A stretch of DNA of 63,047 nt, filler included, from Asterionella formosa (lineage: Eukaryota): assembly GCA_002256025.1 (NCBI GenBank). It is 2 parts of 2 records of this genome, joined end to end, with 100 filler letters (N's around TTAATTAATTAA, not from the genome) between each part and the next. Parts side by side here need not be neighbours in the genome. Positions count along the whole stretch, not along the records: positions 1 to 31,490 come from NKIB01000656.1; 1 more part is not named here. One strand, 5' to 3'. This document shows positions 2,988-53,109 of the stretch, in pieces. Position numbers and translations under genes: made by a program. The notes under the pieces are model-generated. The model was not told the DNA's origin. It was given only the letters and a program-made list of their open reading frames with translations, and ran no database searches. Numbering within the stretch: the first letter of the stretch is position 1; the number at the start of each line of letters is the position of its first letter.

Positions 2988-5030
2988 ATGGCGCCTCGCA
3001 GCAGCAGTGGCAAGAAGAAGGCCAGAGACTCAACAGCTCTGATTCCGAGTAAATGGCCTGAGTGCTGCCCTTTCCCAGAGGAGCATGCCTTTCTCAGCAT
3101 TTCGATTGGTAACACCAGCATCAAGTGGGCTGTTCACAATGGAGCACATGACAATTACAGCGCCCGTACTGCATGGAAGTAAGTACCTGGTACACTGGAT
3201 CTTGTTGAATTCTACACAAGGATCACCCAAAATCATCGAATATTTCAATACCGGTATGCCGGTACCATATATTGGTTTTGGTACTTCCATCAATATTACA
3301 CCAACAGCTAACAAAGATCTTTGCGATCCATCAATTCTCCATTCCACACATGCTGACAGAACGACGCATCTGGGTGAAGAAGACTTCAAGGAAAATAATC
3401 CCTTTCTCATCTTGTCTCGCTACCTCTCCAATGCGGGCCTCAAGCTCGTCTTCGGAGAATCCATGCAAGCCAGCAAGGAAAAAGCAGACGAGGCTGCTCG
3501 GCTCCGACCTGTTCACCTGCTCACCGTCTACTTCACGACCAACGAATTCGATCAACTCGCAATGATCGCTTCTCTCTGGAAGGACATACCCTGCAGGTTG
3601 ATTCAACTTCAACCTAATGATTTCTTCACGGAAGAACAAGGTCGATACGACACCATGGGCATTGATCGGTTGGCAACACTCCGCTGTGCTGGGAGCACTT
3701 TTGGCTTTCCTGTTTTAGTCATTGATGGAGGCACCTGTCTGACTCATACGTCAGCAGATGAGAATGGAAAGATCATTGGAGGAGGAATCTCATTTGGCTA
3801 CGGAGCTCAATTGCATTCGATTGTGAATCGCATCGACAGTGTGGCCCTAGACACGAACGTCTTGATGAAGGAAGCGAACGCCATGCTTGCAAAATGTCAA
3901 GAGCTGGATCCATTCCCGCAAAATACGGTACATGCGGTTTTGACCGATGTCATGGGAGGGATATCTACCAATCTTAGACGAGTGATTAAACAATATGTGA
4001 AGCGTGTGGGATCACCTGAGGGAATGGAAGACGACGGCATCACACCCAAAGCACGCCATGTAGTTATTGTCGGCGGCGACGAAGCTACAATCAGCGACTT
4101 GTTGAACCCACGGGCTCCCTACTTTGAATCGGATGAAACTATGCCGAATTATCATGTTCATACCATGAAGCATGCCATTGCACTTGGGGTCTCTTTTGTA
4201 CTTCACAACATAGTAGAGGAGACTCGTAATAAGAACAACAGCAAGCATGGAGAACTGATGCGGCTTCTCATGGGAAAGCGAGTGGCCAAGCATTTTGCAG
4301 ATGGAAAAGGAGGTATGGACGTCTTCCGGGGGACCATTATGGCTGTTAGTGATGAAGTAGATGATGCTTTCTTCGCCATGGTCAGATATGATGATGATGA
4401 CGTTGAAGAGTTGCAGCCGCCCGACCTGTTCAGTGAGTTCATTTCATTCAATGTTTTATTTGGTTCTTTGCAGCAATGTAAAGACCTAGCTTACATGTAA
4501 TTTTTCTTTGCTTTCCAGCTGCTTTGAAATTATACGTGAAGGTTGGAGAAATTTCGGTTGGAAAGCCAAGTGAAGACCTGATGGAGAGCTCTAGCAAGAA
4601 GAAGAAAGGTGCCGAAGATGCTTCAGCCGTTGTCCTTGCATCGTTTCCTGCAGTTCAAGCTCAAGCCGATAAATTGCACAAAGCTGCTGTTGCCGCTGCT
4701 ACTGGTCCTACCGTCAAGCCTGCGCCAACACCGACTGTCAAACGAAAGGCACCAACTGAAGTAGCGACTCCGGTCTCCTCTGCCAAGAAGAAGAAGGTTC
4801 CAGAAAAGCCGGACCCTCTTTCTTTCAAGGGAAGGCGGGCTGCAAAGCTATTTGATAATGTCGTGTTTTACGGGACAATTGACAATTTTACCGCCGAAAG
4901 TGATGGGGAAGATGAATTCTGGCATGTTACCTATGATGACGGAGATGACGAAGAGTATGACAGTACTGATTTAAAGATTGCTCTGAAGTTTTATGAAAAA
5001 GTCAAGGCTGATGATCCCAAGGGCAAGTAA
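2988..5030 (+). CDS. coaX: Type III pantothenate kinase (CoaX)-like protein with two C-terminal Tudor-like repeats; exons 2988-3178, 3360-4432, 4519-5030
   Basis: GT-AG introns 3179-3359 and 4433-4518 join three ORFs in frame. CoaX-type motifs SIGNTSIKW, GIDRL, VIDGGT, GGGISFG and VGGD. Two repeats of GxRxAKxF..F.GTI..V.YDDxDxEE. Confidence 0.8.
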
Positions 5031-6611: not shown

Positions 6612-9600
6612 ATGGCGTTCCATCAACCGGTTGCCTTCGTAACTCCAAGATCAACCAGCGGAGACAAAAAAATCGACATTCAAATTGAAACACCCAATGG
6701 AGGCTTGTTTGATACTTTAGAAAAGATTGTTCTCACGGCTGAAGCTCGTTCTGATTTGCCACCTTCCGCTGCCCTCGGATCTGCCTCCAACAAAAGTATT
6801 TGCACTGTTCCTACATTTGGTGGTCCCCTAACTACAAAGGAGCTCTCTCGACTATCTTTGATCTCTACTTCTGCTGTTTCGTCGCTTTGTGCGGGAAATG
6901 AAGCGAAAAATAAAAGCTTTGGAAGCGTTGATGGCGATCTTTTGATGAATCTGATTCCCCTCCTCGAGCAGCACGTTGAAGCCGCTGCGAGCGTTGATTT
7001 GATCCGCGAAGCTTCCAAGGTTGTTGCAGCCAATAAAATTATTCACAACGGTACTTCTGGGTATACTAAATCAATGACAATTGACAAGGTAAGTGTCATG
7101 CGAAAGGTGTGTTATGCATGGCGCCGTTGTTTGAATTCTGACACTGATAGTTCGTGCAATGCAGTGGCTGAAGGGAGTTTCTAATCTGGATTCCTTCAAC
7201 AATCTCGGTCTAGGATCTGTTAGAATCATGATAGTGAAGAATGGCCTCGAAGCTGCATCGATTTTGCTTTCTATCATGATGAGTCCAGGAGTCGACGGTC
7301 GAGTCATCAACGAAGATTCGATAGAGAGTTGTATGGTTTTGCTGCGACAGCACCTATGCAAGAATGTGACTCCAGCTCTCACTAATACAGGTCATATGCA
7401 ATCGATTTCTATTAGCGCTGTAGACAAGCTTACTCCGACTCCGAAGAAGAGACATCGAGAATCAGGGGCTTCCAGAGAATTGGAACTTCAGAAGGAACTA
7501 AAGAAGGTTTACAAACATATCATTGCTACAATTCCACAGCTTCTATTGCTTTTGGAGCGATTTGAGAGTCTAGTTGGAATTGTATCATTGGATGACCAAC
7601 CTGTTTTAACTCTTTGCTCCACAGCACTTTCTGTGTTTACTATTGAGCCGACATCGTCTCAAAACGATGAGGGTTCCTATTGTCACCTGCTCCAAGTATC
7701 TGCAATTGATCTTGTCACCGGGATCTTTCACAAATATCCTACTCATCGTCATGTCATAATCGAAGATATATTTCCTGTTTTGTTGCACCTTCCGACTACC
7801 AAGAAGTGGATGCGATCGTATCCTCTGCCTCTGATCGCTGGCGAAACGGTTCGAGCGTCATTAAAGTTGCCGGCTTCTCGGCGCCTTTCATTCGCTGATG
7901 ACCATAGCCATGTGCAATCTTTTGCCATCCTTATCCTCTCACTCGTTCAGACGTGTGTTGTGATGCCAGGATTCGAGACACCTGAGGAATTCCAAGAGGC
8001 CAATACTGCAAGAGCGGAACGATGTGATACACCACGTTCCTCACCAGAGTTCAAGTCGGGACTAGCCAACTGTGAAGAAATGAGCGACCTGTTTGCGTCT
8101 CACCTGTTACAACGATGTTCTCGAAAGGGAGAGGAAGGCGGCGCTTCAGAGTTTAGACCGGTGTTGCAAAATCTCATTGATGATCTCCTTAAGCTTCACT
8201 TGTTACCGGAATACCCAGCTGCTGAAATGATTCTCATGTCGTTCTCTAGAATAATAGAAAATCACTTACACAAGGCAAGATCATCTGGAACAAAAGGTTG
8301 CACTAACAGTTCGTCAGTGGAATCAACCTACTTGACAACAGGTTTTGATGTGCTGGGGAAGATCTGCGCATCAGTTGCCACTGTACTTTTGTGCAATCGT
8401 GAGAATCCCCTCTCCATCGCGCGCCAGATCAAGGAAAATCGGAAAACCAGGGACAATGGAACAGAAGTCAACAGCTGCCATTGTGGCCGAACTCATACCA
8501 GCAATGCACTAATGGTCTGTTGTGACAACTGCCAGGGTTGGTCGCACGGAGAATGCGTTGGAGTGACGAAGGACATACTTGGGTCGCACTGGTTATGCGA
8601 CGATTGTAAGTTGAAGCAGATGGTGATTGCCGCAACCGAAAATTTCACTTTGCGAGGATCAAGAAAAACTAAAGGAGGTGCCAAGGAGATTGATTGTGCC
8701 GAAGTTCCTGAAGCAATGGAAATTCATGTCTTTCGGCAACTACTCCTCTCCTACCTAGGGGGCGCAAGAAGACAGAAGAATAAAAATTCCATGATTTCAG
8801 CTCGAGAGTTCCTTTTGGCTTCATGGGTGAAACAACTATCTGCTGTTGTGGAGCGATCCGAGGAAAAGGTAAAGTCTGGCCCTGACCCAATGCTCCTTTG
8901 TAGACACTTTCTTGAATTTTGGAATCGAACTGAGACCTTCGAAGGGATAAATGAACCTGTTCCAGCCTTAAATAAAGAAGGATATGTCCGACTCATGATT
9001 ACACTCACTGCAAGTCAATCTGAGCTTGTGAAATCATTTCCTCGTCAGATGGGTCTGCTGATGGGTCTCATGTCTGACGACAGTGCATCGAACCGAAAGC
9101 AGGCCGTCAAGGCACTTTCTCTAGTTCTTGAAGCCGATTCAAAGCTCATGTTACAACCCATAATCAAGAAGGCCGTATCTGGTCGATTTCAAGATGAATC
9201 GAAATCTGTGCGCGAGGCGGTTGTGTCACTTGTCGGAAATTTCGTCGTCCAGACTCCTGAGGTCGCGAACGCCTTTGCCTCCTCGCTTCTCCCTCGCCTC
9301 AACGACGAAGGCGTTAGCGTGCGCAAGAAAACAGTTCGAATCTTTCATGAAATTATGACTTCAAACCCAACATTCCGGTTGCGGGCTACGGCATGTGCTG
9401 TGATGCTACGACGCGCTGCCGACCCGAAGGAAGATGATAGCGTTCGTGATCTGATCCATGCACTATTTGCTGGGTTGTGGCTTTGGGGCGAGAACTCTCA
9501 TTTACCTCTTCAAGATTCTAGCGAACCTTTAATGTGTGGGGACCCGACATCATGTGCAGTTAGTTCCGATGCCGGTTTGGTAACTCCGAATTCAAAAGAA

Positions 9601-12089
9601 AGTACAAATGAATCTGGTGAAGTCGTATCTGCCAAGAATGTACCTCGACATAGCGTCGAGTCTAATATACAAGTGCGCTGTAGGATCGCCAGCGAGCAGA
9701 TGATTGAGGTTGTCAATGCCGCCAATAGCAAGGATGTGCTCTTGGCACTACTCCGTGTCCTACTTTCAGGATTTTCGGACTCAGACAAAGACCGCAAAGC
9801 CTCTGAACGCGAAAAACGAAAGAACACAACAATTGCCCATTGTTCTCACCTTGTGGATGCCTTGTTTGAGCACCTCCTCAAATTGGAGGAAAGTTGTCAC
9901 CACGACCGGAATGATTTTTCCAAAACCTTGGTGGCCGTTGTTCGTACCATAGGCGTCTTCGCTGAGGTCACTCCTCTTGACGTGCTCCGTCACATCAACA
10001 CTCTTTTACCCTACATTAAGGCCGACAATGGAGTGTCGAATGCAGTTGAATGTGATATCGTTTCTGAAGTTTGCGACACAATCTATGCGTGTTCTGCAGT
10101 GATGACAACCATGGAGTATCGCGAAATCTGTGATGCATCAGTAGCTGATGACTTGCTCCGTATTACGTATCATTTCGGAAACTCTGCGTTGAGTTCGTCA
10201 ATCAGAACCCTCTCGTTTTTAGCCCAACATTCTGAAGCCACTGACTATTGCGTCTTTTCAAAGCAGTTAATGAAAGTTGCTGGGACTTTCTATGGATATC
10301 TCGTCAAGAACTTGAACCTCACTAATAATTTCACCGAAGTCCATGTAAGGTTTGAATGATTGCATATTGTTTTAATATTTGTGCCTATAATATCTCATCA
10401 TTTTTATTTGGGTGCACGGCGCAGGTCAAAATTCGATCCAACGTGCATCGAGCGCTTGCCGTCATGGGGGCTCTGTGCCGAAACCATGCTAGCAGCGAGG
10501 GTGAATGTGACTCTTGGATGGAGGAATTGAATGACGAGATGACAAAAGAAGCCATTCCCTCAGAAGTTACCGGTGAGAAGTTGATTGAATCCTGTTACTT
10601 CGTCTTTTCGGAGTATCTTGCAAAGGAAGATGGCGAGACAAAGTGCGCTGCGTTGCGTGCCCTTGGTGGAATCTTTGTCTCGCGACCACGAGTTCTACTT
10701 GCAATGGAGCAGTCGGGAGCGATCTCCGAACTCATGTCAGACAATGCTATGCCAGAAATACAGCTTCAGGCACTTCGCAGCTGGCGCGAGATTTTGTTGG
10801 CTGAAGAAAATCGAGTCACTAGTGGAGAAGCCAAAGCAAAAATGGAGAAAAATTCAAATGTAACTTTGTCGAAGAAAATTCAAGGTGATCAAGATAGCGA
10901 TGCAACGCTAGTTGGCGGAATTCTATCTCAGCATGCACAGCGATTGTTCCAGTTGACTGCCTGTCGAAATCCCCAGACCAGACTTGCTGCTGTGGAACTA
11001 CTGGGGCATTTGCTCCGCCAAGGTTTGATCAATCCCATGCAAGCTGTCCCATTCCTCTTTGGACTTCAGGGTGATGTCGCAGCTCCCAATATTCGATCTA
11101 TAGCGTTAAAATTGCTGACTATCGAAAGTGAGAAGCGCCCCGAGATGATTCGTCAACGAGTTTGCGCGGGTATTAAGCAAGCATATCGATTTCAAAGACA
11201 TGTTTACCCTACACAAGAAGTGACGGGTGTTATTCAGACAAAATGCGGCGAAAAGATAATAATTGATTGCATCTTCAGCTCCGTTTTCAAAGACTGCATT
11301 CGCAGTTCGTCGAAGAATAAAGCGGGACTGTTCCGAAATCTTCTGTCGCTTTTCGAAATCGATCAGTGCGATAATTCGACGAAGGGGGACTCGGCAATTG
11401 AGATGATTCCATTGCTTTCCTTTGCATCGCAGGTCTTGGCACATTTACCGTACAATATAGTGAGCGATCCACTATTCCTTATCTTCAACATTCAAGGACT
11501 CGTTGCTTTACAAGGCCAGCAACTTGTTGACAAGATTGCAAGGTTTCTACAGTGCCAAGGAATCCCAAGTGTCACAGTTCACGATGAGTTGAATACAGAA
11601 GAGGATACGCTAGAGATTGCAGCTATTTCCAAGTATCCAAGTAGATTCAAAGGGGCATCAGCAATGAACGAAGCTGATTTTGCACTCGATCGCTTTGTTG
11701 AACTTTGTGCTCAAGCTTCGGCAGTAGTTCTCCTCCTTCGACTGAAGACTTTCCTCAGAACCAGCTACAATATCAGCGAAGCTCGTTGTCATGAGTATTC
11801 TCCGGATAACCAGCAGCGAAATTGGGATAAGATTGCGGTATCTCCACACTTTCCAAGTGTGTTTGATGCCACCATTCAGAGTTTCTTCCGATCGAAACCG
11901 CAGAATATGAAAGAATCAGTGAAACGCTCGAGCAACTGCAATGTTGACAAGGACGCTCTCATAAAGCAATACGCTGAATTTCGTTTGATGATGCGTATCG
12001 ATCAAGCTGCGGATGTGAAACTGGAATCCGATGATGAAAAGGATAACGCCAAGCCCAAGTTGGGCGATACGGGGGAAATGATGGAATAG
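6612..12089 (+). CDS. SCC2: Cohesin loader SCC2/Nipped-B-like protein with inserted PHD finger; exons 6612-7088, 7165-10344, 10425-12089
   Basis: In-frame GT-AG introns 7089-7164 and 10345-10424. Scc2 motifs LLPEYPAAE, RFQDESKSVREAVVSLVG, RLNDEGVSVRK, LRQGLINPMQAVP. C4-H-C3 PHD at 8476-8607. Confidence 0.92.
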
Positions 12090-12762: not shown

Positions 12763-13476
12763 TTACTGGCGCGTCCAAAAGACAGGCATAAATATATTCT
12801 TAAACAAACCAACTTTGCCTTCCTTCTTTCGCCGCCTTTTGAAAAAGTGTCGGAGTAGGCTGGCACTTCGCTCGGATTGAACTCCTTTGACTACGTCCGT
12901 TATGTTATGATAAGGATGCTTTGAATCAAGCAAGCGAATATGGGTCTCTACTGCTCCTAACCTCAAGTCTGGCGCTCCATAAACCAAATTATTAATTCGG
13001 AATGCCTGACAAGCAGCCAAGCACATGGGACAAGGCTCGAGCGTGGAATAAAGAGTTGTGTTGACCAATCTCCAATTCTGAAGTCGAACTGAGGCCCGAC
13101 GAAGTGCCAGGAGCTCAGCATGTGCTGATGCATCGTGGTTAGTTTCCACGCTGTTGCCTGCTCTGGAAAGTATTTCATACTGATGATTGCTCCTTTGTTG
13201 AACGACTAATGCCCCAATGGGAACTTCTCCCTTTTCGCCAGCTTTTTCTGCTTCGTGCAAGGCTAATTTCATAAAATAATTTCGAACCGTAGCAATGTCC
13301 CAACCGTCATTCAAGCAAACAATTTCGTTTCTCCTCCATCGATGAGTGAATTCTTGCAGTGTCCAGGAATTTACAGTATTACTGGGTAAAAGAAATAGCC
13401 ATGTGGCGAGGTAGAAGAAGTAAATTCCTTTGAAACGGTAATGGCCCTTACTCGTAATATTATTGGTACAGATCAT
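12763..13476 (-). CDS. tadA: tRNA(adenine34) deaminase, TadA type, with hydrophobic N-terminal extension (probably organelle-targeted)
   Basis: Motifs GEVPIGA, AHAE, TLEPCPMC and LVYGA. ATG at 13476 is followed by the hydrophobic segment YFFYLATWLFLLP. Confidence 0.88.
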   Translation of the reverse strand: MICTNNITSKGHYRFKGIYFFYLATWLFLLPSNTVNSWTLQEFTHRWRRNEIVCLNDGWDIATVRNYFMKLALHEAEKAGEKGEVPIGALVVQQRSNHQYEILSRAGNSVETNHDASAHAELLALRRASVRLQNWRLVNTTLYSTLEPCPMCLAACQAFRINNLVYGAPDLRLGAVETHIRLLDSKHPYHNITDVVKGVQSERSASLLRHFFKRRRKKEGKVGLFKNIFMPVFWTRQ

Positions 13477-13654
13477 TGTAATCAATCTGTCAATATGCAA
13501 CACTAGGATGATTATGTAGCTTGTTCGAAAGTCGATACAGTGGCCTAAAGTTCGCGAAACCTTGATCATAATTTGAAATTTGGGATGATGGCTTGTTGGA
13601 ATTATCACATGCACCAACCTTTTGTGCCCCACATGCAACCTAAGATACGCCGTA

Positions 13655-13885
13655 GTCAAACGTTTGTGTTTTCCGGGTTTTTAAGCCTGTTCTTCCTATA
13701 GGTAAAACTTCTTTTTCGAGTTCCACCGAAGCTTAGTGGAGCCTCTCAACAAATGCCTATATACAAAGTATTACTTCATGTTACTCCTTTCTTTTTTTGG
13801 AAAAATCGGTCATTGAGATTAACCCCTCGAGCACAATACAGCACGAGAAAACTAGAACCGGTAGCAATTTTAAATCAACTAGCTG
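13655..13885. repeat. Dispersed direct repeat, copy 1 (copy 2 at ~15275-15503)
   Basis: Both copies share tcaaac.tttgt.ttttcc...ttcctataggtaaaacttct...tggagcctctcaacaaa.gcctata...aatcaac.agctgat. Confidence 0.75.
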
Positions 13886-15503: not shown

Positions 15504-17238
15504 TCCAGTCAAAGCGGAAGGCAACTATTGGATCAATAGTTACACTTAAAATGGACTACAGATATAGAAGGCAGCAACCCACATGGAATTTCTACCATTG
15601 TGTTTGACCTATCTAACAAATGAACTTGAAAAGGAATACAAGCAGTAACTGATCATCGCGTTATATGTTCTGGAAAAAGGTAGATATCATGAGAAGATAT
15701 GCTTTATCCCTCTAGAAAGATAAATTGTCCAGCATCGAAATAAGGCAGTCATTTCACCATATTTGAATGAAAAGAGACAAGCCATGCTTGATGGAACTTT
15801 CGCCTGTGAAAATTATAGAAAAATGAGTATGCAGCAAGTGCATACTTTGTGTTATCTTCAAGATAGCAAGTCAAAACAAAGGGGTAAGTGTATGACAAAA
15901 TGCACAAATGCTTGTGGATGTTTTAAGGAAAAGAATGATTGCAGTGTGTCTTGCAAATGTTCTGCAAAATTTATGAACAAATTCTTAAGTCCTTATTATG
16001 TAACAATAATTTTCATCAAATTTTTTGTCATAGAAAAATCGGGTGAAACAGCTGTGTTGGAAATTGTGGTAAATGTAGGAATGATTGGATAAAGCCTCAT
16101 CCTAGAATGCTTTAGTATCTGATTTATTTTTCCTTGGTAATATGCAGACTACTACCGGTATACCAGTACATAGGCGTCTTGGAATCACCCCCATATCAGG
16201 GGTCAGAATGGTGATTTTCTTAGCCTGAAATACATTTCATTTCAATTCAATTGCCTCCAAATTGCCTTGAAATTTTTATCGGTGACTCGAAAAAAGATGG
16301 CCATGACTGTAGAGATTATATTCACAATTCAAGCACTTGTATAGCAGAGATACTTCAACTTGTTACTTCAAATCTGATGAATAGTGTCGATTCAGCAGAT
16401 TTCACTAGTAAATTCTGCTGTTTTGGATTTATCAGACATGGCATAACAGATGGCTATCGTTCCCAAGGTGCAAACTGGGAGTTACCAAATTTGGTCAATA
16501 CTAACACAAATTTTGGTGTTATAATACACATGAAATAACATTTCTTTTTTTAGCATGCCCAGTATGATAGCAGAGGAATATTACAACATACCACTGGTAT
16601 ACTGCAGCCATTCAATGAGTTACATCAGTCACAGTATTGTGGAGATATGTATGACCAATATGCTGTGTGAATGTCCTGGAACTTCAACACAAGTATGTGG
16701 ATTTATTGCAGATAGCCTACCAGTTATGCTACCAGTACTAGACCCAACAATGCATGCAATGAATTTATAGAAGATAAAATACTGGTAGCAATCATCACAC
16801 TTCAGCTTTGCTGTCAAAACTTGTTCTCAGCACCCTACATCACTTCATGGATACACCTTCAATGGTAGATAACAATGTTACCAGTGCTCCATAAGGTACT
16901 GATAGTTCTTTTTGGTTGCTAGCCTTTCCGCATGCAGTGTTTACACCCTTGCATAAATCTCAAAAACCAAATGGAAGAGCAAGGAGCTTGAGCTATCCTT
17001 GAGTATTTATCCTCCATCATCACTTCAGTCTGGAGGTTGAAACTTGCTGTTGTACTGATGCTGGCAGTTCATATACATTGAAGCAGGAATGCTAGAAAAC
17101 TCCCATCACCAAGAATTTATTGCTGTATCTTTGGTGCCATTTAAAATATGGGCCTAAAAGGGAAAAGTACCTAAATATTGGAATTATTGGCAGGAAAGAA
17201 CAGGATTTTTTGCCTGTACATGGAATGCAGCAGTAACA

Positions 17239-20200
17239 TTATGCTGACATGTGTGTGAAGAATGATGCCCGCCAAGGATTGTCAGTGCGAAAGTTTTCAG
17301 GGTCATATGGGCTGAATGCAGGAAGAAGCTCTGTTTTCACAGAATCATTAGTGAGATTCAATTGCTCCATATCTTTGCGAATGAAACTGACTTTGTCACT
17401 GTCCTCTGAATGTATCTTTGCAAGTACTTGAAGGCCTTGCAACCGTTGACCAATTTCTCTCTGACCAGTTAGGTCTACAGAAAGTGTTAGTGTATATGGT
17501 ATCATCATAGAAATGCATGCTTTTAAATTTCAAGTTTGACAAAGCACTTACATCCAATGTACCCCACAGCGACATTAGCCAACTTGTTGCTGTAATAGAC
17601 AACTGGGACCATCCGCACAGCTTTTGTTGCTGTTGCATACTGATAACTCATGTGATAAGTCATCTCTTGAATAATTTCTTTTGTTAGTGGACTCACGTGT
17701 GCATCAGGTTTCCAAACAACATTTTCATTCAGAATAACACGATAAAAAATGGGTTTGCTTGTACCCTTGATACCACCATGTGCTGTCAATAGGAAGTCAT
17801 ACCCTCCATTGGGAGATACCATCTCAAACAATTGCACGGGAGATGCAGGTTGTTGTGACATCATCTGCTCATCCTCTGAAGGACAAACAATAGCCAACCC
17901 CTGACTATCCCAGAAAGCATTAATTGTGTGATCCACACAAGTGCCACTCACAACATTCCTTGGACTGGATTTCTTGCCAAAAACCTCTAATTTTCTAGGT
18001 ACCATTCGAATATTGTGCTGACTCAAAGCCACAACAAATGTGATTATTGGTGTGCAAAAGGCACAACCAATTCCTCTGCACTTTGGGTTATGGCATGAAT
18101 CCATTCCATGCTCTGCACGAAGTTGAGCAAAAGCGTGTCTAATGCTTGTAACTTCTGTCTGTAGAAGTGCATCAAAATTTCCTTCGGATGCCCCATTTCT
18201 ATAGACGATAATCCGTTTTGGCAATTTTTCACCAGTGTGAAGATAATACTGGATTGCAAGATTCTGGCAAAGACAAGGCGGAGAAAAATAGACAAAGAGT
18301 GTGTGAGCACTGGAGTTCTGCTTAATTTACATTGCCTTCGAAAGCAAAAATGTACCTTTGTGAGGCTTACAAGGACACCTGGCTCAATAAGGCTTGGAGA
18401 TTGTTGAAGTCGGTATGCCTGGGCCATTTGCATCCCATTTTGGAGACATGCTGACGCTGCAACAACACTTTGGCTTTCTTGACCGCTAGCTGAAAGGGGA
18501 AATGTCAAATCAAGGTAGGAACAAATCCATCTCAGTAAAGCACATTGTCTTACCTCTTGCCATTGAGAGGCCCATGACCATTGTTGGTGCTTGTTCAAGC
18601 CACGGAATTCGTGCTTCCACACTATCAACATCCCATGCATAAGCGCAATTATGCTTGCTTGACAATTTAGCATTCAATTTCAGTGCGATGTTGCTGCAGC
18701 TGAAATTTGCGAAAATAATTAGTGGCTGCACAAAAATAAATGCTCACTAAAACAAAGGAGAAGCAAGAAACTCACTATTGGTCGGGACTCTTCTGCTGTG
18801 AAAACTTTGAACCAAGGAAGCACTGGGATTGCACACCAAACTCAAAGTTTGACATTAGTTTAATTAAATTGTACCTTTCATTTAGAACATTGCAAGTTAG
18901 AAAATTATTCGAAGACTTATTGCGGACAAGTAGCAACACATGCACTTACCGGCCAGCTCCATCATCAGGTAACTGACAGAATACAACACTAGGACACTCA
19001 ATTTGCCAATCCTCTGCTATAGTGACAGGTCGCTTTTTTGCCTCCATTGGAATTTGAGAACCTTCTTCTGAAATCCAGACATATGCTTCAAGAGAAACAG
19101 GTTGTCCTTCAACAGTACATTGTCCTTCAACAAAAGTGGGAAATAGCATACATTAGGGCCAACAATACAACTTAAAAAACAATGATTTCATTCTCATTGA
19201 ATATACCTTGTTCGTTCCACGACATATCAAATAAATCAACTGGCGATGCATGATTGCTGACAAGGGCCATTTTTCTGACTATGATTTCTTGTCCATTCAA
19301 GTCAACAGCATGAGTAGGGGGGTAAACTCCCTGCGGTAGCACAACCTCAAAACTGCTAGATCCCTGTTCTAGCCATGGGAAGATGATTCCCTCGGTAGTG
19401 TCCCCATCGGGGCTAATCACGTTAGTTCTGAAAAATGCACCGTTTTTCTTGAAAAAACCTGAGGAATCCCGAAGGAAATAATTCCTTGCCCTGAAAATTG
19501 CTTCCTTGAAAGCATCAAAGATCTGGGCAGCAAGTGTCAGCAGACATGGTATTAATTCTTTTAAGTCAACGCTTCACACATACCTCAGCTGGGTTGCCAT
19601 TGCTACTTGCTTTGACAGTTAACTCAGGAAGTGCAGAACGCATGCTGATGTTTTTTGGTAACTGCATCCCATGAGCCTTCATCCTTGATGTGAGCATGGT
19701 GATGAACTTGTCCATCGAAGTCCAATTCCCTGCAAAATCTATAGCAGCAAAAGACATCAATTTTGCCGGGCTGCAGAGAAGAAAGGAAATGAATAAGCAT
19801 TTAGACACAGTTCGGAAGGCAGCCCGAACAAGTGTTAACCCCTTCACTCACCTAGAAAAAACAAGGTCGTTTCTTCCGTCAAGAAGATTCCAGGAGCCAT
19901 CCCTTAAGGAGCCACGGATTTTGTTATGAAAAGTGATATTGGGCTCCTTTAGCACTTTGGCTTTCAACGTCAGGGGTTCATTCTCTATTTTCACATTGAA
20001 CTGGCTGAGTAGAGCACTAGAACTTTGGCCTGTTTGTGCCTGGACTTCTTCAGCCATTTGCTTGATTTGTGCAAGATGGTCAAGCCGTCGTGTTGACGCG
20101 AAGTTATCGTTAAAACCAAGTACGTGTTTGACCTTTACATATAATTGAGTTAGTTTCACCAGGATCACTGAGAATGACAATAGATTTGCAGTAGGACACC

Positions 20201-22254
20201 TACCTGCTCAGGAGAGTTAGCATCCTTCATCTTTCCAAAAGCTTGTCGCAGGAATTCCACTGGAAAATACCCCTCTGAAGTTAAAACCATTGGCATGAAA
20301 GGGAACTCAAGAGGAAGACCTCTCTTCTCTGCGAAGTATTGAGCAACAGAGTATTTGATTGGAGTCTCATCCGGAACAGAGTCTTCGGGGCCTTTCCTTG
20401 GCGTCAATTCGAAGCTGTGAAGATCTGGGTTGTTTGCTTCCATGATGACTCCAGGCTTTTCCTTGCTCTTCCACATGACATTTTGATTATTCAATATCCT
20501 CGTCCGTTTCTTTTTCTTGAAGGCTACCTTCTTCTCGATAGTGTCTTGATCCTTTCCTTCTGCTCGTAAGGTATTTCGAAATTCTAAAAGAAGCAATGGC
20601 AAATACTTAGAATCATTTCTCTTGTGAAAGCGCGGCCCATGCATGTATCACACTAACCTTCTTCATCTTCTCTGCTCCATGGCAGGGTGTAGCGGACATG
20701 AAAATTACACTTTTTCAAAGCAGCTTTGACAGCCTCTACAGTTCGAGGGTCTTTGATTGGTCTGCTTAAGTCGCCAACAGACACACCACAAATGGTTCTA
20801 TTCTTGCGATCCAGCAACATTACAGGTTGTGCAGGGTGGGGACTCTGTCGGTCCTTGTTCTCTAACAGGAACCAAGACAGGCCGACATCAACATTCAAGA
20901 ACACATTTCCATCTTGGCAAACTCGAATCGCCTGGGACATACCAACAAACGGAGCAAAGGATTGCTCTCTCTGAAACTCGAAATTAGAACATGCCAAAGA
21001 TCTTGTACATCGAGATCAATTTGGAAAACTTACATTGGAGAGGTACACACCAGAGAGTGCAGGTCCGAGCACTCTCCTATCGAGTTGCATTTCTGGGGGA
21101 AGGTAAAAGAAGTGGGGGGACTTCCCAACAGAAATCATGGGAGAGCTATACATGCTCGATTTCAACATAGTCTCGAGGCATTGTTTGATCTGCTGCACAA
21201 ATGCTAGTTGATCTGCTACGCAAGTAACTTCCGTTGCCTGAATAATCCCGACCTCTCGCACTCTGACTATGAACCATTGTTTCTTTGCACTATAGCAAAG
21301 TGAGCCAGATGATAAATGAGTACTGCGCTAACTGAACAATAATACTTACCTCTCTGCTCCCTCGTCAGATTCATCGCAATTTGTAAGTACCTTGACGCAG
21401 TAATACCACGTCAATCCGACCTGTGGTCCCTGATGTCCTCCTGTTGGGATACCTACATCCGATGGACCATAGATGCCTGGGGTTACCAGAGCTTGCTTAT
21501 TCTCGACAAAGGCAGCCGCGGGAATGCGGGGGTCGGAGCCTGACTCTTTGATTATTTGTGAAGGGGCATAAGCTGCGGCCCCTCCGTCACACTGAATGAA
21601 AAGTGAGCTTCGGAAGCAAAATGGATGCGATCCAACGAAAAAACACGATAACTTACTACTAGGGCTACGCCAGTGGTGTCGAAAATCTCTCGACGGAGAC
21701 TGTTAAGGATTCGCCTGGAAAGAGGCGTGGATCCCTTGTCGAAGTCCATTTCAAACTTCGTTCCCTCCATTTTCCGCGAATCCTTCGGAATAATCATGAT
21801 GGGGCGGCTGCCCTCAGGCAACTCAGAGGTCTGATCGATAGTCCTTCTAGCATGGAAGATGCTGACATAGTATTGTACCCAAGTGCAGTTGTCACTCATG
21901 TGCTGCACCGACATGTTGAGCTTGAAAAAGTTCAGCTGAGAAACGACGTGTAAGATTGACAAGTGGTCTGCAAGTGAGAGTTCGTATCTTCCCAGGTAGA
22001 ACGATCTTCGCTATGATGATGATTCAACTTTGGATTCAGAACATGATCGGAGAACTCACCATGACTTCTTCGTAATCTGACCTCCCACGACTTCCCCCAC
22101 CTCCTCTTCCTCCAAAGCTACCGCCACCGCGTCCGCCACCTCTATGACCGCCTGGGGGGCCCTGGTTGTACCCGAAGTCCCGGGAGCGGGATCGTTCGCG
22201 ATCATCGTCGCGATGATTGTAATCCTGGCGGCCTCGGCTATTCTGATACGACAT
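17239..22254 (-). CDS. AGO: Argonaute (RGG-rich N-terminus, N, L1, PAZ, MID, PIWI), ~15 exons, predicted slicer-dead
   Basis: Exons join via GT-AG introns (e.g. 21936-22059, 21592-21656, 21290-21349, 20971-21033, 20584-20657, 20133-20203). Motifs LNFF, GMSQAIR..LNVDV, PAZ SVAQYF..L.FPFMP..YFPVE, MID YNLIK..VQSQC..KLNAKL, PIWI PKRIIVYRNGASEG, HGGIKGTSKP, YATATKAVRMVPVVYY. Confidence 0.92.
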
Positions 22255-22945
22255 TGCAGCTTGCTTCTACAGCACGATGCAGCAATAGCTTGCGTGACTT
22301 TGCCTCTGCCTTGTTGAGTTCAGAGGTGTCGACGATGTTGAGAAAGGAATTGCAAAAAAGCTTATTGTTAATAGGCAGACTTAAACAATACCGGTTGTCA
22401 AAAGATTCTGCCAAGGAATACTGGTAATACAAAGTACGTAGAATTTAACAATAACCATTATACGTATAACGTGTTGAAAGATTTCTTATGTTAATTTCGG
22501 TTATCATGCGCTCTCAAGGAACATTTTTCTTTACATCGTACCTGGTACCTGGAACCGGCTGTTGGGAAGAGAATGACAGTGCCACGTATGTCTGCAAATT
22601 AGAAGTGTCATGTAAGTAGCATCAAGGTATCATGCACCAAGTAGCACAGGATTTTTCGGTTTATGATACATTTGCATGTACATGTATGTATGATCAAATC
22701 CTACCATAAGTATGATAATATTATCATACCAGTACTGGTACTTTAAATGATAATATTATGCATTGTATTGGTTGTCATAATTTGTCAGAAACAATTCCAA
22801 TCTACAAATAAACATCTTAGATCTACAATGCCAATTATTGGAACAGCCACCATAAGAATACTACCGGTAGTCAAATATGATCACCCTAATTAATTATTTC
22901 GATGGCCCACTATGACAAATTGGGCTACATACATAAACAACTTAA

Positions 22946-25997: not shown

Positions 25998-27938
25998 CTA
26001 GACCATTTCAAACTCTGGATCTATATCATCTGCAGGTTGCTGATCTTCCCCTTCTTCGTTTGCAAAGCCTCCTTCGTCGTCAAATATTGCTGACATGGCA
26101 TCGTAGTTTATCTTCCTAGAAATCTTCCGTGCACTGACAGCTGCGAATAAGGCCTCCTCCGTTGTTTGTTGCAACTCCTCTTGCAGTGTACTTGATTTTC
26201 GCTTGCGGCCTCGCTTGTTTAGGTACCGAGCGTGGCCTTCTGCTTGTGCCATTTCATCTTGTTCTTTATGTGTCAATGCTGCTTCTTGTTGTTGGCGTTC
26301 TGCTTCCTTTCGCTCTTGTTGTTCGAGGTATTCTTTGTTGAGTGAGTTGAAAATAGCTTCTTTTTGAGCCATCTCCACGTCAGATCTAAACAACGACTCA
26401 ATACCTTCCACGTGAGCCTCGGGCATGTCAGACTTCCAATGTTGAAGATTCAATTTGTCTTCATTTAACTGTGTCGATACTTGCAGTTCTTCTTCTGTCG
26501 CCTGGTTGGGTAGAACAATGACACGACCGTACTTGGACTTTGGATACATTGATGCCAGCAGAGGGTTTGGAGCCGTGAGTGCTCCGTCAGCCCGAAGTAC
26601 AACCTGTTGGTCCTCGGACCGGCCTTCTTCGTCGTCTTGCTGCTCATGCACTTTCTCTAAGGCCTCGGTTTGTTCCGAATATTTTTCCACGTCAATGTGA
26701 GCTTCGTTTTTCGGTCCATTGCCGGCATGTAGTGTTTCCTGTCCTTCATCTCCAGCAGGCTCATCACTCATTCCTTCGTTTGTGCTTTGTACGGTGCCGT
26801 ACGTGAGATCTTTCGCTAATTCCATGTATAATGCAGTATGCTCTTCTCGGTTTTTGGGCTTTCTTCCCCCTTTGCGCCACATTGTAGAATGCTTGCCTTC
26901 AGATGGATCGTCCAATGCACCAGATGACAATAGTTGAACGTTACCTTCCTGGATGGCCCGAGCTCTGGCCTCGCGAATGCGGTTTCTAGTGAAAACTGGA
27001 GGATCTGCCTCTGCTTCCAATTCTACAGTATTGAATTGTTCCAATGTCAATGTTGCGCTCGGTGTCTGTTCAAACTCCTTAACTCGATTCGTCACAGTCA
27101 GTCCACACACCCTCAAAATGCGACTCACATCTTGATGATGGCGCGAAAATCCGTGTGCGCGAGCAGCAATCAACAGAGCGGCAGCGCAAATACCAGCAGG
27201 TCGGCGACCTGCGACAATCCAATCTCGCTTCATCCGTCCAACCAGGCGCAGAGCGGTCAGGGCCACTGCATTGGCTTTGTGGTCCAGATCCAGATGTGCA
27301 GCAAATCTGTATACATACAGTGCAGGATCAATAATTTCCAACTTGAGACCGAGCAGTCGTCTAAATTTCAAGAAACAAGTTCCCAAGGTATACACATTCA
27401 CTTGCAAGGCATCCGAAAAATCAATCAACATATGCTGACTCTTTTCTTGTCGACATGCAATATACAAACACGCCGCGACAACATGAGTCGTTCGTCGTCC
27501 TTGCACAAAGTTCTTTTCCACGGCAATCGTAAATAAGCGATGTGCAGCATCGACATAGTGTGATCCCAATCTTAGCCGCGAAGCCACATCTTGAATCCTT
27601 CTTCGGCCATTGGCCAGCGTTGTTTCTCTCGAATCTCTGGAGAAGCCGTATCGTCCTCCTCTCCCCCCTCCAGTGTATGCTTTGCTGCTAGTGGCACTGA
27701 CAAACTGTCCCACCATGCTGCTTGCCCCACCAGCTCCCTCGACGAATTCTACTGACGAGACAATGGCATTTTCTTCCACCACGACGCCGCAGTCGGTGCA
27801 AATGGAAGCTCCCGAAGCGTCATGCTGTTCTATTTCCTTGGAACCGCAATTGGGGCACAACAGTCGGGAGGACTTTGTCGGAGGTGGTGCCACAGCTTCT
27901 TCGGCTGTATTTGCAGCGAAGGAGACTGTGCGAGACAT
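25998..27938 (-). CDS. BRF1: TFIIIB subunit BRF1
   Basis: Zn ribbon CPNC..CTDCG, cyclin folds (NFVQGRR, GRRPAGICAAALL) and C-terminal TBP-binding region (SRKINYD). ATG MSRTV at 27938. Confidence 0.93.
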   Translation of the reverse strand: MSRTVSFAANTAEEAVAPPPTKSSRLLCPNCGSKEIEQHDASGASICTDCGVVVEENAIVSSVEFVEGAGGASSMVGQFVSATSSKAYTGGGRGGRYGFSRDSRETTLANGRRRIQDVASRLRLGSHYVDAAHRLFTIAVEKNFVQGRRTTHVVAACLYIACRQEKSQHMLIDFSDALQVNVYTLGTCFLKFRRLLGLKLEIIDPALYVYRFAAHLDLDHKANAVALTALRLVGRMKRDWIVAGRRPAGICAAALLIAARAHGFSRHHQDVSRILRVCGLTVTNRVKEFEQTPSATLTLEQFNTVELEAEADPPVFTRNRIREARARAIQEGNVQLLSSGALDDPSEGKHSTMWRKGGRKPKNREEHTALYMELAKDLTYGTVQSTNEGMSDEPAGDEGQETLHAGNGPKNEAHIDVEKYSEQTEALEKVHEQQDDEEGRSEDQQVVLRADGALTAPNPLLASMYPKSKYGRVIVLPNQATEEELQVSTQLNEDKLNLQHWKSDMPEAHVEGIESLFRSDVEMAQKEAIFNSLNKEYLEQQERKEAERQQQEAALTHKEQDEMAQAEGHARYLNKRGRKRKSSTLQEELQQTTEEALFAAVSARKISRKINYDAMSAIFDDEGGFANEEGEDQQPADDIDPEFEMV

Positions 27939-28874
27939 GCGTTTTGGAATGCTTGTATTCGCACCGGTAGTCTTGGTGATGAGGAACGAGGTGAGGGATG
28001 TTGCCAACTAGGACTGTGCAACGCACAAGCGAACATATGATACCTTATGGTACGAGTACTTATCACCGGTACCTGGTACCGGTACCGGTACTGTAATACA
28101 TTCTTTCTGATGTGTGGAATAGAATTTACCGGTACTCACCTGCTCCAGATTTACTGGAGTATCACGGTCTTGAAAAATTACTCCAGCCATACTTGGGGTC
28201 GTTCTTATCATTTTCGATTTGGTATCATATTTTTTGAAAAAGTATCATGCAACGGCTACTCGATTTAAATCGAAAAAATCCATTCTCCACAAAAATAAAA
28301 ATAAAATTGTATCATCAAAAAGTATCACGAAAATTCAACGGTTACGGGCTGGCTACAAACATGTGCTTTTCCTTCCAGACTACCTGTACATAATGGTACC
28401 AAACCAGTCCTCAAACCATGCAAGAAATCTACGCGAATTATGTATATGGATTACTATAATCAATGGTATTTGCACAGGTATTTGTTGTAGTCACGTGATC
28501 ATTTTCGTATTCTATTATCATTTTCGTATTCTATTGCCTAGTACTTTGTCATGAATTCCCGAATATCAGTACCAGGTACTGGTACCTGTAATTAGATACC
28601 GGGTATGTCTCTATGCACATGACTCAATCTGTTCAATTCTCGACTTTGTGGTTGTCGTTCTTTGGTGTTGTGACTGAACATTGCAACACACGGCCGCTAG
28701 AATGATTGTATGGTCCTTCTTTGATGCACACCATAACATGTATATTTTATGTAGATGTAAGGAAAAGTACTGCCCTGCAGGCGTATTTTCGGTTATTTTA
28801 TTAGTGACAACGGAAATGATACCCGCGTGAAAACGTCAGTATCACTGATACCGTTTTTGGAGGGGGCAAAAAAA

Positions 28875-31490: not shown

Positions 31491-31590
31491 NNNNNNNNNN
31501 NNNNNNNNNNNNNNNNNNNNNNNNNNNNNNNNNNTTAATTAATTAANNNNNNNNNNNNNNNNNNNNNNNNNNNNNNNNNNNNNNNNNNNN
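31491..31590. other. Assembly gap with artificial TTAATTAATTAA linker
   Basis: 44 N + TTAATTAATTAA (six-frame stop spacer) + 44 N. Confidence 0.97.
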
Positions 31591-34450: not shown

Positions 34451-34893
34451 GAGAAGAGGTGGTGGCAAGAAAAAAGGGGGGTCAGGCATCTGCATTTCGC
34501 TCGAGATGAGCAAAAGTGGAAGTCGAAAAAGCCGAAAAAGCCGAAAAACGTTTTTTTCAAATGTATTTGCCAATTCTTATCTTTCTATATATTTTGTATA
34601 TACATGGATCCGTAGCTTAGAGCAAGCTGCACCATATGTAGGGCTATTGAGTGGGAGGAAGTCGTAGGAGTCAAAATGGCCCCGGATAAATTTGAATTAT
34701 CGATGCAACTTGTTATTAGACAGATGGAGTACCAGTTACTACCGGTACCTGGTACCCGGTACCAGGTACCATCAGGGCACTCACTCATGTACCGATATTT
34801 CATCGACAAGTTGTCCTCCTAAGTCCACATGCTATAGGTACGGCTCCAAGTAAACCAAAAGTATAATCTGCCCACGTATTAAAAGAATTTGCC

Positions 34894-36348
34894 ATGAACC
34901 CGCCAAAGACTTCTGCGTGGAAGGAGGAAGCACTGCAGCTGATTAATCTCGCCATTCCAACAGTGATCGTTCAACTCGGGGCCACCATTCCTCCTGCTCT
35001 GGTTGCCTCCTACGTTGGACGACACCTCGGCTCAACCTATTTAGATGGATTCACATTGGCCAATCTGACCGGGAACTTATGCACTCTCTCGCTTCTCTCT
35101 GGTCTTTACTCGGCTTCGGATACACTTTCTCCGCAAGCCTTCGGCGCCGGCAACTACAGAGAGCTTGGATTATTGGCCATGCGAGGGTTTGTAATTTCCA
35201 TGCTTGTGCTCATTCCGATAAACATTGTTTTGGTTCTTTTCATGGATCAATTGTTGGTCCTAGTCGGCCAGGACCCAGTGCCATCCGCCCTAGCTTCCAA
35301 GTGGTATACCATCTATGTGATGTCACTCCCATTCTATGTGGTCTATATGGTCACTTGGAAGTTCCTATCGGCACAGGAAATCATGACTCCACTCGTGCTT
35401 ATATTGGTAGCGACACTTTTGATGCTGCCTCTGTTACTGGATATTTTTGTGCCCGCATTTGGTTTCTTGGGTTCCGCCGTGGCGATTCTAATGTATTTGG
35501 TGAATCAGTCGGTATTGCTGGTGGCTTATCTTTGGTGGAGAAAACCCCATCGACCCGAGTCTTGGCCGGGAATAGGAGCTTGGAGGGAAGCTCTAGCATG
35601 TAAACCTATGAAGATTTACATTTCGTTGGGGTTGGGGGGCATCTTGTCGGCTAGCGAATGGATTTACTGGGAAATGTTGGGAATTATGATTGGCAAGCTC
35701 GGACAGTTACCCCTAGCTATTCATACAGTTCCAAATCAAGTACTAATGATGTCATTCATGATTCCCTTAGGTCTTGGAATTGCACTTTCCATTCGGTTAG
35801 GGCAGGTTTTGCCTCGGAGTGTCAAGAGAGCGAAGAAGCTCGTCGCATGGACGTTTATTGTGGCGTTCATCATGGTTTCATGTATATGCATCTGGCTGTA
35901 TATCTGCCGAGATTTCATTGTTCACATGTTTACCAAAGAGCAAGATGTTCTCGAAGGGTGCAAAAGAATTTGGCCTCAAGTTGTATTTTATAACTGGACT
36001 CTCAGTATTTCTGCGATTGCCATGGGCACTGCGGCAGGACTTGGTATGCAGTGGACCTTGGGTTTTGTTACTTTTATTTGCTTATGGGTCGTTGGAATGC
36101 CTGGTTTGTGGTACTTTGCTATTCATTTGGGAGGTGGAATCGTTGTAGCTTGGAATTGGATTTATCCTCCTTACATGGTATTGAATGCAATCATGTGTTA
36201 TCACTTTTATTTTGCCGACTGGGACGATATAAGTGATAAAATCAGAATTCGAGAGGGCATGGATGACGACCCAACACAAGATATCTATGAATCATCCTAT
36301 GGTGCTGTTGATGTTGCACTGAGTTTACTAGAATATTCTAAACCATAA
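34894..36348 (+). CDS. MATE family efflux transporter
   Basis: 484 aa, about 12 hydrophobic segments, motifs SASDTLSPQAFGAGN, SEWIYWE and ALSIRLG. Confidence 0.92.
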   Translation: MNPPKTSAWKEEALQLINLAIPTVIVQLGATIPPALVASYVGRHLGSTYLDGFTLANLTGNLCTLSLLSGLYSASDTLSPQAFGAGNYRELGLLAMRGFVISMLVLIPINIVLVLFMDQLLVLVGQDPVPSALASKWYTIYVMSLPFYVVYMVTWKFLSAQEIMTPLVLILVATLLMLPLLLDIFVPAFGFLGSAVAILMYLVNQSVLLVAYLWWRKPHRPESWPGIGAWREALACKPMKIYISLGLGGILSASEWIYWEMLGIMIGKLGQLPLAIHTVPNQVLMMSFMIPLGLGIALSIRLGQVLPRSVKRAKKLVAWTFIVAFIMVSCICIWLYICRDFIVHMFTKEQDVLEGCKRIWPQVVFYNWTLSISAIAMGTAAGLGMQWTLGFVTFICLWVVGMPGLWYFAIHLGGGIVVAWNWIYPPYMVLNAIMCYHFYFADWDDISDKIRIREGMDDDPTQDIYESSYGAVDVALSLLEYSKP

Positions 36349-45905: not shown

Positions 45906-46848
45906 ATGACTACCGATAGCTTTCTTCATGGTGCTAGTTAATTACTTGCGCACTAGCTTCCACTATGGCTAGAATTTTCTGTCAAATAAAAAGTGAATAC
46001 CAGTGTCCCTACCAGTAGTAAATTCTGCTTATTTGGATATCATCAGATATCATGAGCTTGTAACTCGTCGATGACCTCTTATTGGCTGAGAACTATGGAA
46101 CAGTAAAGTATGACACAATCTGGTATGTGCTCAAGATACAGGCCCACTCTGCGTTAGGCACAGCTTAAGAAATAGAAAATAAATGATTTTCAATAACAAA
46201 CCGTGTTCTTATCCTGTCATCGGGTCAATGCAGTTCGAAATTTTTCGCAGTGGTGGGTACCAGGTACTATATACCACACCCAAGTATTCTTTTTGCATCA
46301 CGCACGACAGCAGCTGCTTGACCTTATATACTGGTAGTACTCGTAACTGATACGTACCATTAGCAGAGCGAAACTGTAAACCTGCATATTTGTAACAGGT
46401 AGACTACCGTACCAGGTACCGGTACACAACTAATCCACATGTACCTATATGTGGAACTCTGGCATGTTCCTGTTTTTTGCATACTACTTTCATACATAAG
46501 TATGGCATGTTCGCATGTACATGCAATAGGACCTGTTCATCCAATTTTCTGTAATTTATTCATACATGAATACTGCATTTCTGGTCGACCTCGCGTTTTC
46601 GGAGTGATACAAAGCAGATGAAACGAACAGAGAGAAGGGACATAAATTGCTACTCGAGTACCTGGTACTCCAGAGTACCAGGGTACCTGGTACCAGGTAC
46701 CACCTAAAAAAAAATACAAATATAAATTCTGGTCCACAAGTATGCCGGTAGGTACATAGCAGCTATGAACAAAGCTAAGTAGTCTTTTATAATTTTCGTT
46801 TTGTTCGCTCGGGGGCTTCTTCCTTCCGAGTGTTGTTTGCTTCACACC

Positions 46849-51768: not shown

Positions 51769-53109
51769 GAGGGAAGCAAATAAGCAAGAAACAATCCAAG
51801 ATATTTCACATACAAGCCATCATGGGAACGTCGCCTACATCACCTTACGTATGATACCGGCATGTATCATGCTTGTCACGACATACCCTTCACATCATTT
51901 CCGGTACCAGGTACCTGGTACCTAGACCCTAGCTACGTATGTTTGTGTGCACTGGTAGACTACAGGTACCTGGTACCAGGTACCAGGTATGGTGCCGGTA
52001 TCAAGAGCTCGTTGTGGTTTATCAATGGTCTGGCCTTCATCCTAACTTCCAATTACGGCTGCACTCGTTTGTACAACACAAAACCCGAGAGGAATTCCTC
52101 GATCAGGAAGATAATCTGCACTTCTCAGAATCATGTTCTAGAAAGAGAGAAACTTGGTCTGTCCTAAACACTGCACCCAAAAACAGTGATTGTATAAATT
52201 AAATATACTAGAGGAGACCAACAAACCACCCCAAAGTCTGGGAATAAGTGTTCCTGCATATAGCTATTGTCTTCTCATCATCACACAAATTTAATTCACA
52301 GATGCTGCCAGTTTCAAAAGATTGCTATATATTCTTATTAATGTGTGAAGTGCCACTCCCAAGCCTAATGCCACGTGACATTGAGCTCAGTATGACTCAT
52401 CATTTACTCAATATGGCATCATGATGCATACTCTGGAATCAAGACCTTCGCCGGGGTAGCTAAGCAAGTGACAATAGCTACTCAAACATCATACACAATT
52501 GACCCCCTCCTATTGGACCCACTCACATCTGAGGCCTCTAAAATGATTTTGTTGTTCCACTTCTGAACTACCAGCCTACCAGCCTACCAGTACAACTTCC
52601 ATTTCATTGTTACTGTTCACAAAATTTCCTCTTGCACCCCAATTCTCGTCACTGCACCAGAGTTCTCCCATCGTTTTTTGGAAAAATTCATTGCAGTTAA
52701 AAATCATGGATCCAATTTTCTATCCCTGGTATGCCAAAGTGCACAAAGTTCAACTTCAAGCCTTCAACTTGAAACCTAAGCATGACAGTAAAGATTCTTG
52801 CTTTCATCTTTTTAGGACAATTTAACTAGTGGATGCTCATCCAGTTTTCTGATAGTTCTTATTTTCAAATGACCTTTCATTATTTAGAAATGATTTATTG
52901 AATGAAACTTCGATCATGAATAGCTGATGCATATGTGCATACAAGAGCTCAACTGATAGTTGCTGTCTCTGAGAAAGATTTCACAATACTGACAAATTTG
53001 ATAGTTTTGCTAATGGTGACAATGAGGATTCTCAAACTGATCAGTGCAGATAAACTGTGCAAACACCCAAAGGAATACTGATGAGACTGGTGGTATGAGG
53101 TCCATCATG

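Follow-up and report, generated by a model that had tools for sequence, protein, structure and literature searches.

Diatom Argonaute (AGO) proteins were set apart in 2009 by De Riso et al., who reported that their endonuclease site is poorly conserved and that they cluster outside the AGO-like, PIWI-like and worm group-3 proteins (PMC2724275). That statement was repeated later (PMC4156623; PMC6284064), and a study of oomycetes likewise placed the diatom homologs outside the main AGO-like and PIWI-like groups (PMC6284064); these and the other PMC papers are cited from the portions of their text available to us. Here we characterized an Argonaute gene on the minus strand (22254..17239) of a 63,047-nucleotide stretch, filler included, of Asterionella formosa DNA from assembly GCA_002256025.1. 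The whole stretch, hereafter the window, joins two parts end to end that need not be neighbors in the genome, and positions 1 to 31,490 come from NKIB01000656.1. A preliminary description, made from the sequence by eye, proposed an intact Argonaute lacking its slicer residues and left open whether such a clade had been described. The diatom clade with a degenerate catalytic site is most likely the one already described in 2009, and in the light of that description the window gene is one more member of a known group. We consider it probable that this is a functional, expressed nuclear diatom gene and that its product would act as a non-slicing, small-RNA-guided effector with an intact guide pocket and missing metal ligands.

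The closest described proteins are those of Phaeodactylum tricornutum (Pt2_47611) and Thalassiosira pseudonana (Tp3_1029), which share with the window gene a diatom origin, PAZ, MID and PIWI domains, a degenerate site and placement in a separate clade (PMC2724275). Compared through their published description, they would fall into one clade with it. The best functional analog appears to be Tg-AGO of Toxoplasma gondii, in which, as in the window protein, N-terminal RGG repeats and the MID Y-K-Q-K residues are present and the slicer residues are absent (Braun et al., 2010; PMC2877743). Tg-AGO loads small RNAs, and both its association with polysomes and its binding of Tudor-SN depend on the RGG region (PMC2877743). 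It is, however, an apicomplexan protein, and the available text of that paper does not mention a MID insertion of the kind described below. Among stramenopiles, the Phytophthora AGO5, AGO8 and AGO9 groups likewise depart from the DEDD/H tetrad, with states such as D-D-D-N, D-_-N-R and S-D-G-_ (Bollmann et al., 2018; PMC6284064), and that tetrad is established as necessary for slicing (PMC6284064). Unlike the window gene, these are lineage-specific tandem paralogs within the AGO-like family, and some oomycete AGOs also lose MID residues, which the window protein does not (PMC6284064). Argonaute is mentioned in a preprint (10.1101/2025.10.10.681168) only for the oomycete parasite, not for the diatom.

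The window consists of nuclear DNA of a eukaryote, and its introns are short. When the minus strand between 22254 and 17239 was read as stop-to-stop frames, exon 14 alone gave a Piwi match (E 4.7e-28), beside weak ArgoL2 and PAZ matches. The full structure was obtained from RNA contigs over positions 17000-22500, assembled from four public runs of four studies (X1, X2, X6 and X7); three of these are freshwater or lake metatranscriptomes or polyA RNA libraries, and X7 was counted as RNA on an automatic guess only. The gene comprises 15 exons whose joined coding sequence of 3951 nt encodes 1316 amino acids with no internal stop, and all 14 introns are GT..AG on the gene strand (CT..AC on the plus strand). 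Thirteen of the 14 splice joints were common to all four runs; the remaining one, 18871|18947, was found in three and was absent from the X1 contigs. Three joints were moved by 1-3 nt, within the ambiguity reported for the boundaries. The contigs run past both coding ends, to below 17000 and to about 22345. The limits given in the preliminary description were therefore right, with an ATG and a stop at the two ends, and its claims that the exons splice without frameshift and that an RGG tail is kept were borne out, the N-terminal 66 residues containing three RGG and five RG motifs. A public protein of 1311 residues, P0001, found with the largest exon, is 100% identical over that exon and near-identical over all exons; it departs from our model by five substitutions and by five missing residues (VSLTK). 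Just past the glutamate-finger loop, exon 13 can end at either of two 5′ splice sites that are in frame and separated by 15 nt; the downstream one (GTACAT at 18355) was used in all four RNA runs. P0001 lacks VSLTK (18370-18356), as if the upstream donor GTAAGC had been used.

P0001 was aligned by phmmer to Arabidopsis AGO10 (AtAGO10; 7sva) and human AGO2 (hAGO2; 8d6j chain, in the chain's own numbering), and residues of the window protein are numbered on the RNA-supported model of 1316 residues. Against the hAGO2 catalytic tetrad, which we take to be D597/E637/D669/H807, Ser953 is opposite D597 (the Asp of GADV), Asn1024 opposite D669 (the Asp of YRDG) and Asn1227 opposite H807 (the His of YYAH). 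The three assignments were concordant in MAFFT with three plant AGOs and in hmmalign with 18 canonical AGOs, and no variant between window and RNA contigs was listed at the four tetrad codons. The preliminary description had read these replacements (Ser for the first Asp, YRNG for YRDG and YYSN for YYAH) at exactly the same codons. Its wider statement, that all four slicer residues are substituted, is confirmed, though less sharply for one of them: the Ser, Asn and Asn are clear and the guide pocket is kept, whereas the residue at the glutamate finger depends on the alignment, being Ser989 with hAGO2 and in MAFFT, or Gln985 with AGO10. That no Glu occupies the finger position holds, on a loop of uncertain alignment. 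The DEDH/DEDD tetrad of slicer-competent Argonautes is thus not matched at any of its positions (Ser953, Ser989/Gln985, Asn1024, Asn1227).

The machinery for holding a guide appears to have been retained. The MID pocket residues Y876, K880, Q892, K915 and K919 are opposite hAGO2 Y529, K533, Q545, K566 and K570 by phmmer, with hmmalign in agreement, so the four residues named in the preliminary description (Y-K-Q-K) are kept as part of a set of five. The Pfam Piwi domain (PF02171) was found in P0001 at E 3.2e-42, with 145 bits against a cut-off of 28.9. By phmmer, P0001 matched AtAGO10 at 3.8e-22 and hAGO2 at about 1e-15; AGO-like chains ranged from 3.8e-22 to 1e-11 and PIWI chains gave 8.9e-09 and weaker, no PIWI rows being included in the tree below. 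For the clade as a whole, rather than the single protein, hhalign of the diatom-type profile (A2) against a canonical AGO profile (A6) returned probability 100, E 2.1e-84 and 767 aligned columns. The match runs over columns 28-1152 versus 50-847, from the N domain through the PAZ region to PIWI, and shows a predicted N-PAZ-L2-MID-PIWI layout in full. An AlphaFold2 (AF2) model of P0001 from MID to the C-terminus (663 residues; multiple sequence alignment of 53 rows) had a mean predicted local distance difference test score (pLDDT) of 86.5 and a predicted TM-score (pTM) of 0.89. Its best Protein Data Bank matches by Foldseek were AtAGO10 (7sva; E 1.5e-20, TMq 0.49), then human AGO1-4, and MID-PIWI is thus confidently predicted to fold as an Argonaute. 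AGO10 and hAGO2 (7sva, 4ola and related structures; Foldseek E 1.5e-20 and ~1e-18) share this fold and the 5′-phosphate pocket residues with the window protein at about 18-25% identity. They are, in contrast, slicers with the full DEDH; they have neither the Cys cluster nor the MID insertion (about 130 residues), and their C-terminal tail is shorter. Loss of the catalytic site, together with such large clade-specific additions (MID insertion, Cys cluster, C-terminal extension), could also be expected of an Argonaute fold reused without a guide, as a small-RNA-independent scaffold or RNA-binding protein. We consider this very unlikely, since almost every clade member retains the five pocket residues and the conserved C-terminus, which is hard to explain without guide binding; moreover, hairpin and antisense silencing works in diatoms in which only this AGO type is reported in the available text (PMC2724275; PMC3145265).

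In our sample the loss of catalytic residues is a property of the diatom-type clade as a whole rather than of the window gene. In a profile search against 1.84 billion representatives, 7407 matches reached E<=0.001; diatom-type proteins matched as one stretch of about 400 bits or more and canonical AGOs as three stretches of about 190-270 bits. Residue states were tabulated for 51 rows covering MID-PIWI, 33 diatom-type and 18 canonical, with P0001 omitted as a near-duplicate of the window protein. The first Asp is present in one of the 33 diatom-type rows (P0005) and in all 18 canonical rows. The His is present in none of the 33 (one has Asp there and two have Glu), compared with 11 His, six Asp and one Asn among the canonical rows. 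The second Asp is kept in 25 of the 33, with Asn in four, Ser in two and Glu in two, and in 18/18 canonical rows. A complete tetrad occurs in no diatom-type row, and Y-K-Q-K-K is fully kept in 30/33, the remainder being two with Ser for Gln and P0012, which is garbled. In a quick IQ-TREE analysis (50 rows, 394 columns, P0012 dropped, support by the Shimodaira-Hasegawa-like approximate likelihood ratio test [SH-aLRT] only), the 32 diatom-type rows split from the 18 canonical rows with support of 100, and the window protein grouped among the former. It belongs to a four-row subclade (support 99) with P0008, P0009 and P0017, in which the second Asp is lost in all four, unlike the 25 diatom-type rows that keep it. 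P0009 is from Thalassiothrix antarctica, an araphid pennate diatom; the named members of the clade are all diatoms (Dactyliosolen, Thalassiothrix, Corethron, Odontella and Thalassiosira exigua), and most rows are nameless. On this distribution, loss of the first Asp and the His appears ancestral, having occurred at or near the clade root, and loss of the second Asp and the finger Glu appears later and common to the four-member subclade. A full-text literature search, with most subscription journals outside it, found no tetrad census of the diatom clade.

Several observations weigh against a functional, guide-loaded Argonaute that has given up slicing. The finger loop aligns ambiguously and Glu992 lies three residues downstream of the finger position; the tetrad assignment rests on alignment within well-conserved motifs, and acidic side chains coming from elsewhere are conceivable. 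The PAZ match (PF02170) in P0001, at 14.1 bits and E 0.045, is under the cut-off of 28.8, which the subclade relative P0008 exceeds with 32.7 bits. Lastly, the N-terminal 859 codons contain 2 synonymous versus 7 non-synonymous changes between window and RNA contigs, a ratio of about 1 that is compatible with weak constraint there. A protein that still cuts RNA through substitute acidic residues such as Glu992, or through another catalytic arrangement, would be in keeping with the mobile, ambiguously aligned loop, with the retention of Glu992 in 4/4 subclade rows and with a PIWI fold predicted at high confidence. Both metal-binding Asp positions are nevertheless Ser and Asn, and the His is Asn; canonical rows too have Q, D or E in the Glu992 column, and hence no new acidic residue has arisen. 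Furthermore, the first Asp is gone in 32/33 clade rows, and its replacements are so varied (S, G, A, N, H, T) that they resemble loss of constraint rather than a new site. Residual slicing is, in our view, exceedingly improbable.

The N-terminal ratio also bears on whether the gene is a decaying or redundant paralog on its way to becoming a pseudogene, the four-residue loss then reflecting relaxed selection on the whole gene; the position of the window row in a long-branched part of the clade points the same way. We find this highly improbable. The frame of 1316 codons is open over 15 exons, spliced RNA occurs in four studies, there is no variation in the MID pocket or in many PIWI columns, and the MID-PIWI variants are 5 synonymous versus 2 non-synonymous. 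The subclade with equal losses also includes a separate genus, that of T. antarctica, which argues that the catalytic loss has been retained over a long time. Among the four RNA runs, 18 variant places were listed over 17000-22500; between window and RNA contigs there were 7 synonymous and 9 non-synonymous base changes (in 8 codons), a ratio of about 0.36 overall and of about 0.11 in MID-PIWI, where counts are small. These numbers are a hint only, being too small for more. Long-term conservation is a stronger argument for a live gene than the variant ratios: numerous columns of PIWI and MID do not vary across clade relatives that come from several diatom orders and have 30-49% identity. Near-identical spliced transcripts were found in freshwater and lake metatranscriptomes of several studies, seven runs containing half or more of the sampled words, and their source is probably a common freshwater diatom. 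No relative of P0001 was confirmed among 18 pattern matches in metagenome contigs.

The clade also carries an insertion in MID, beta-rich and about 130-150 residues long, which separates helix 2 from strand 3. All diatom-type rows covering this part of MID have it, whereas it is lacking from the canonical profile and from the eight canonical rows compared. Its confidence in the AF2 model was above 90 pLDDT, except for one block of 10 residues (84), and the homologous part of the relative P0002 folded alone with pLDDT 94.3 and pTM 0.86. One His is invariant, and an Arg and an Asp are near-invariant. Foldseek gave no match to the P0002 insertion at E<=0.001; ranks 1-14 were KDM4/JMJD2 double Tudor structures (E 0.014-0.07, TM ~0.2). 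The highest VIA-align Z was 4.5, from an alignment of about 50 of the 141 residues, which is below the tool's level for a meaningful match, and an Atlas search with the insertion found nothing at 0.9 or more (best 0.85). As the matches were only weak, of small-barrel or Tudor-like type, designation of the insertion as a Tudor domain was not adopted. No description of the insertion was found in the literature search mentioned above, within the same limits. It is an unlikely but conceivable proposal that diatom-type Argonautes, beyond being canonical AGOs whose active site has decayed, form a structurally distinct class in which slicing was given up at the root and replaced by an effector or reader, the inserted module comprising SH3/Tudor-like barrels and being accompanied by a Cys4 knuckle and a longer tail. 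Such a module might bind methylated Arg or Lys (in the protein's own RGG tail or in chromatin marks) or RNA, and, if the proposal is true, it could account for target mRNA staying during hairpin silencing in diatoms.

Two further additions were observed. A Cys cluster, C-x4-C-x4-C-x2-C, is inserted in PIWI (18095-18054, minus strand; pLDDT ~90) and may be a zinc site; about half of 20 clade rows have it, P0008 and P0009 not being among them. The C-terminal region (17474-17239, minus strand) is about 35-40 residues longer than that of hAGO2, with lower model confidence, and ends in a clade-conserved P-F-x-x-H-x-S-A.

The features of the gene and of its surroundings are collected in Table 1. Among the annotated genes of the window there was no neighborhood link to transposons or to other RNA interference genes, the neighbors being ordinary housekeeping genes. 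Two runs of N, 44 each (31491-31534 and 31547-31590), were read as assembly gaps or masked stretches.

Table 1. Positions of the Argonaute gene, its exons and the other annotated genes, counted along the window
Feature	Coordinates	Strand	Content or basis
Argonaute coding span	17239..22254	-	15 exons, 1316 codons; RNA contigs; start codon ATG 22254-22252, stop 17241-17239
Exon 1	22060..22254	-	Start codon and Arg/Gly-rich N-terminal tail
Exon 2	21657..21935	-	RNA joints
Exon 3	21350..21591	-	RNA joints
Exon 4	21034..21289	-	RNA joints
Exon 5	20658..20970	-	RNA joints
Exon 6	20204..20583	-	Weak PAZ match, residues 491-540 (20398-20249)
Exon 7	19852..20132	-	ArgoL2 match, residues 576-623 (20072-19929)
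Exon 8	19584..19770	-	MID, first part
Exon 9	19207..19522	-	MID helix 2 and first part of clade-specific beta insertion
Exon 10	18950..19124	-	Remainder of insertion, MID strand 3
Exon 11	18776..18874	-	MID pocket Y876 (18873-18871), K880 (18861-18859), Q892 (18825-18823)
Exon 12	18554..18699	-	MID pocket K915 (18680-18678), K919 (18668-18666); Ser953 (18566-18564)
Exon 13	18356..18489	-	Glutamate-finger loop: Ser989 (18394-18392) or Gln985 (18406-18404); Glu992 (18385-18383)
Exon 14	17552..18263	-	Asn1024 (18197-18195); Cys cluster (18095-18054); Asn1227 (17588-17586)
Exon 15	17239..17474	-	C-terminal extension, H-x-S-A terminus (17262-17242), stop
Clade-specific beta-rich insertion in MID	18994..19462	-	Residues ~732-860, spans intron 9
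PTM/DIR17-like Tudor protein	4482-5030	+	
Nipped-B/SCC2-type cohesin loader	7135-12089	+	Two adjoining long frames: PHD, Cohesin_HEAT, Nipped-B_C
Cytidine/tRNA deaminase-like protein	12763-13680	-	
BRF1 (TFIIB-related)	25998-28007	-	
MATE transporter	34867-36348	+	
Class I methyltransferase with winged helix-turn-helix	36397-37629	-	
Phytochelatin synthase	46783-48900	+	
Prolyl oligopeptidase	49711-51819	-	
Wbp11/GYF protein	55957-58056	-	

The preliminary description had proposed a non-cleaving, guide-binding Argonaute. Its structural part is upheld, the metal-binding Asp positions and the His being replaced, the pocket kept and the gene spliced, and its functional part is carried by inference. 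On the reading that we prefer, that of a small-RNA-guided effector that does not slice, 5′-phosphorylated small RNAs would be loaded into the protein and a target RNA would be located through base pairing with the guide. Silencing would then proceed without cutting, the target being held while other factors are recruited. Such factors would probably dock on the N-terminal tail, rich in Arg and Gly, and the MID insertion is a further candidate site. The result could be repression of translation or silencing through chromatin or DNA methylation, between which the present data do not discriminate, and a role in chromatin or transposon silencing, as first suggested for this gene, is a guess. According to the available text of the relevant studies, diatom small RNAs are mostly 25-31 nt long and derive from transposons and repeats, and canonical miRNAs are not known (PMC4156623; PMC4247016; PMC12867755; PMC11910954).

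For the single gene the result is modest: it gives an RNA-backed annotation to a further member of a clade known since 2009 to have a decayed catalytic site. Diatoms are, however, major primary producers in which antisense and hairpin knock-down is widely used, and a 2025 review calls the mechanism of that knock-down unresolved because the silenced mRNAs persist (PMC11910954). In T. pseudonana, as summarized there, the mRNA of silenced genes persists (PMC11910954), which fits a non-slicing effector, and the lack of a complete tetrad throughout the sampled clade would offer a simple structural reason for silencing without slicing. The result directs attention to whatever factors bind the RGG tail and the MID insertion.

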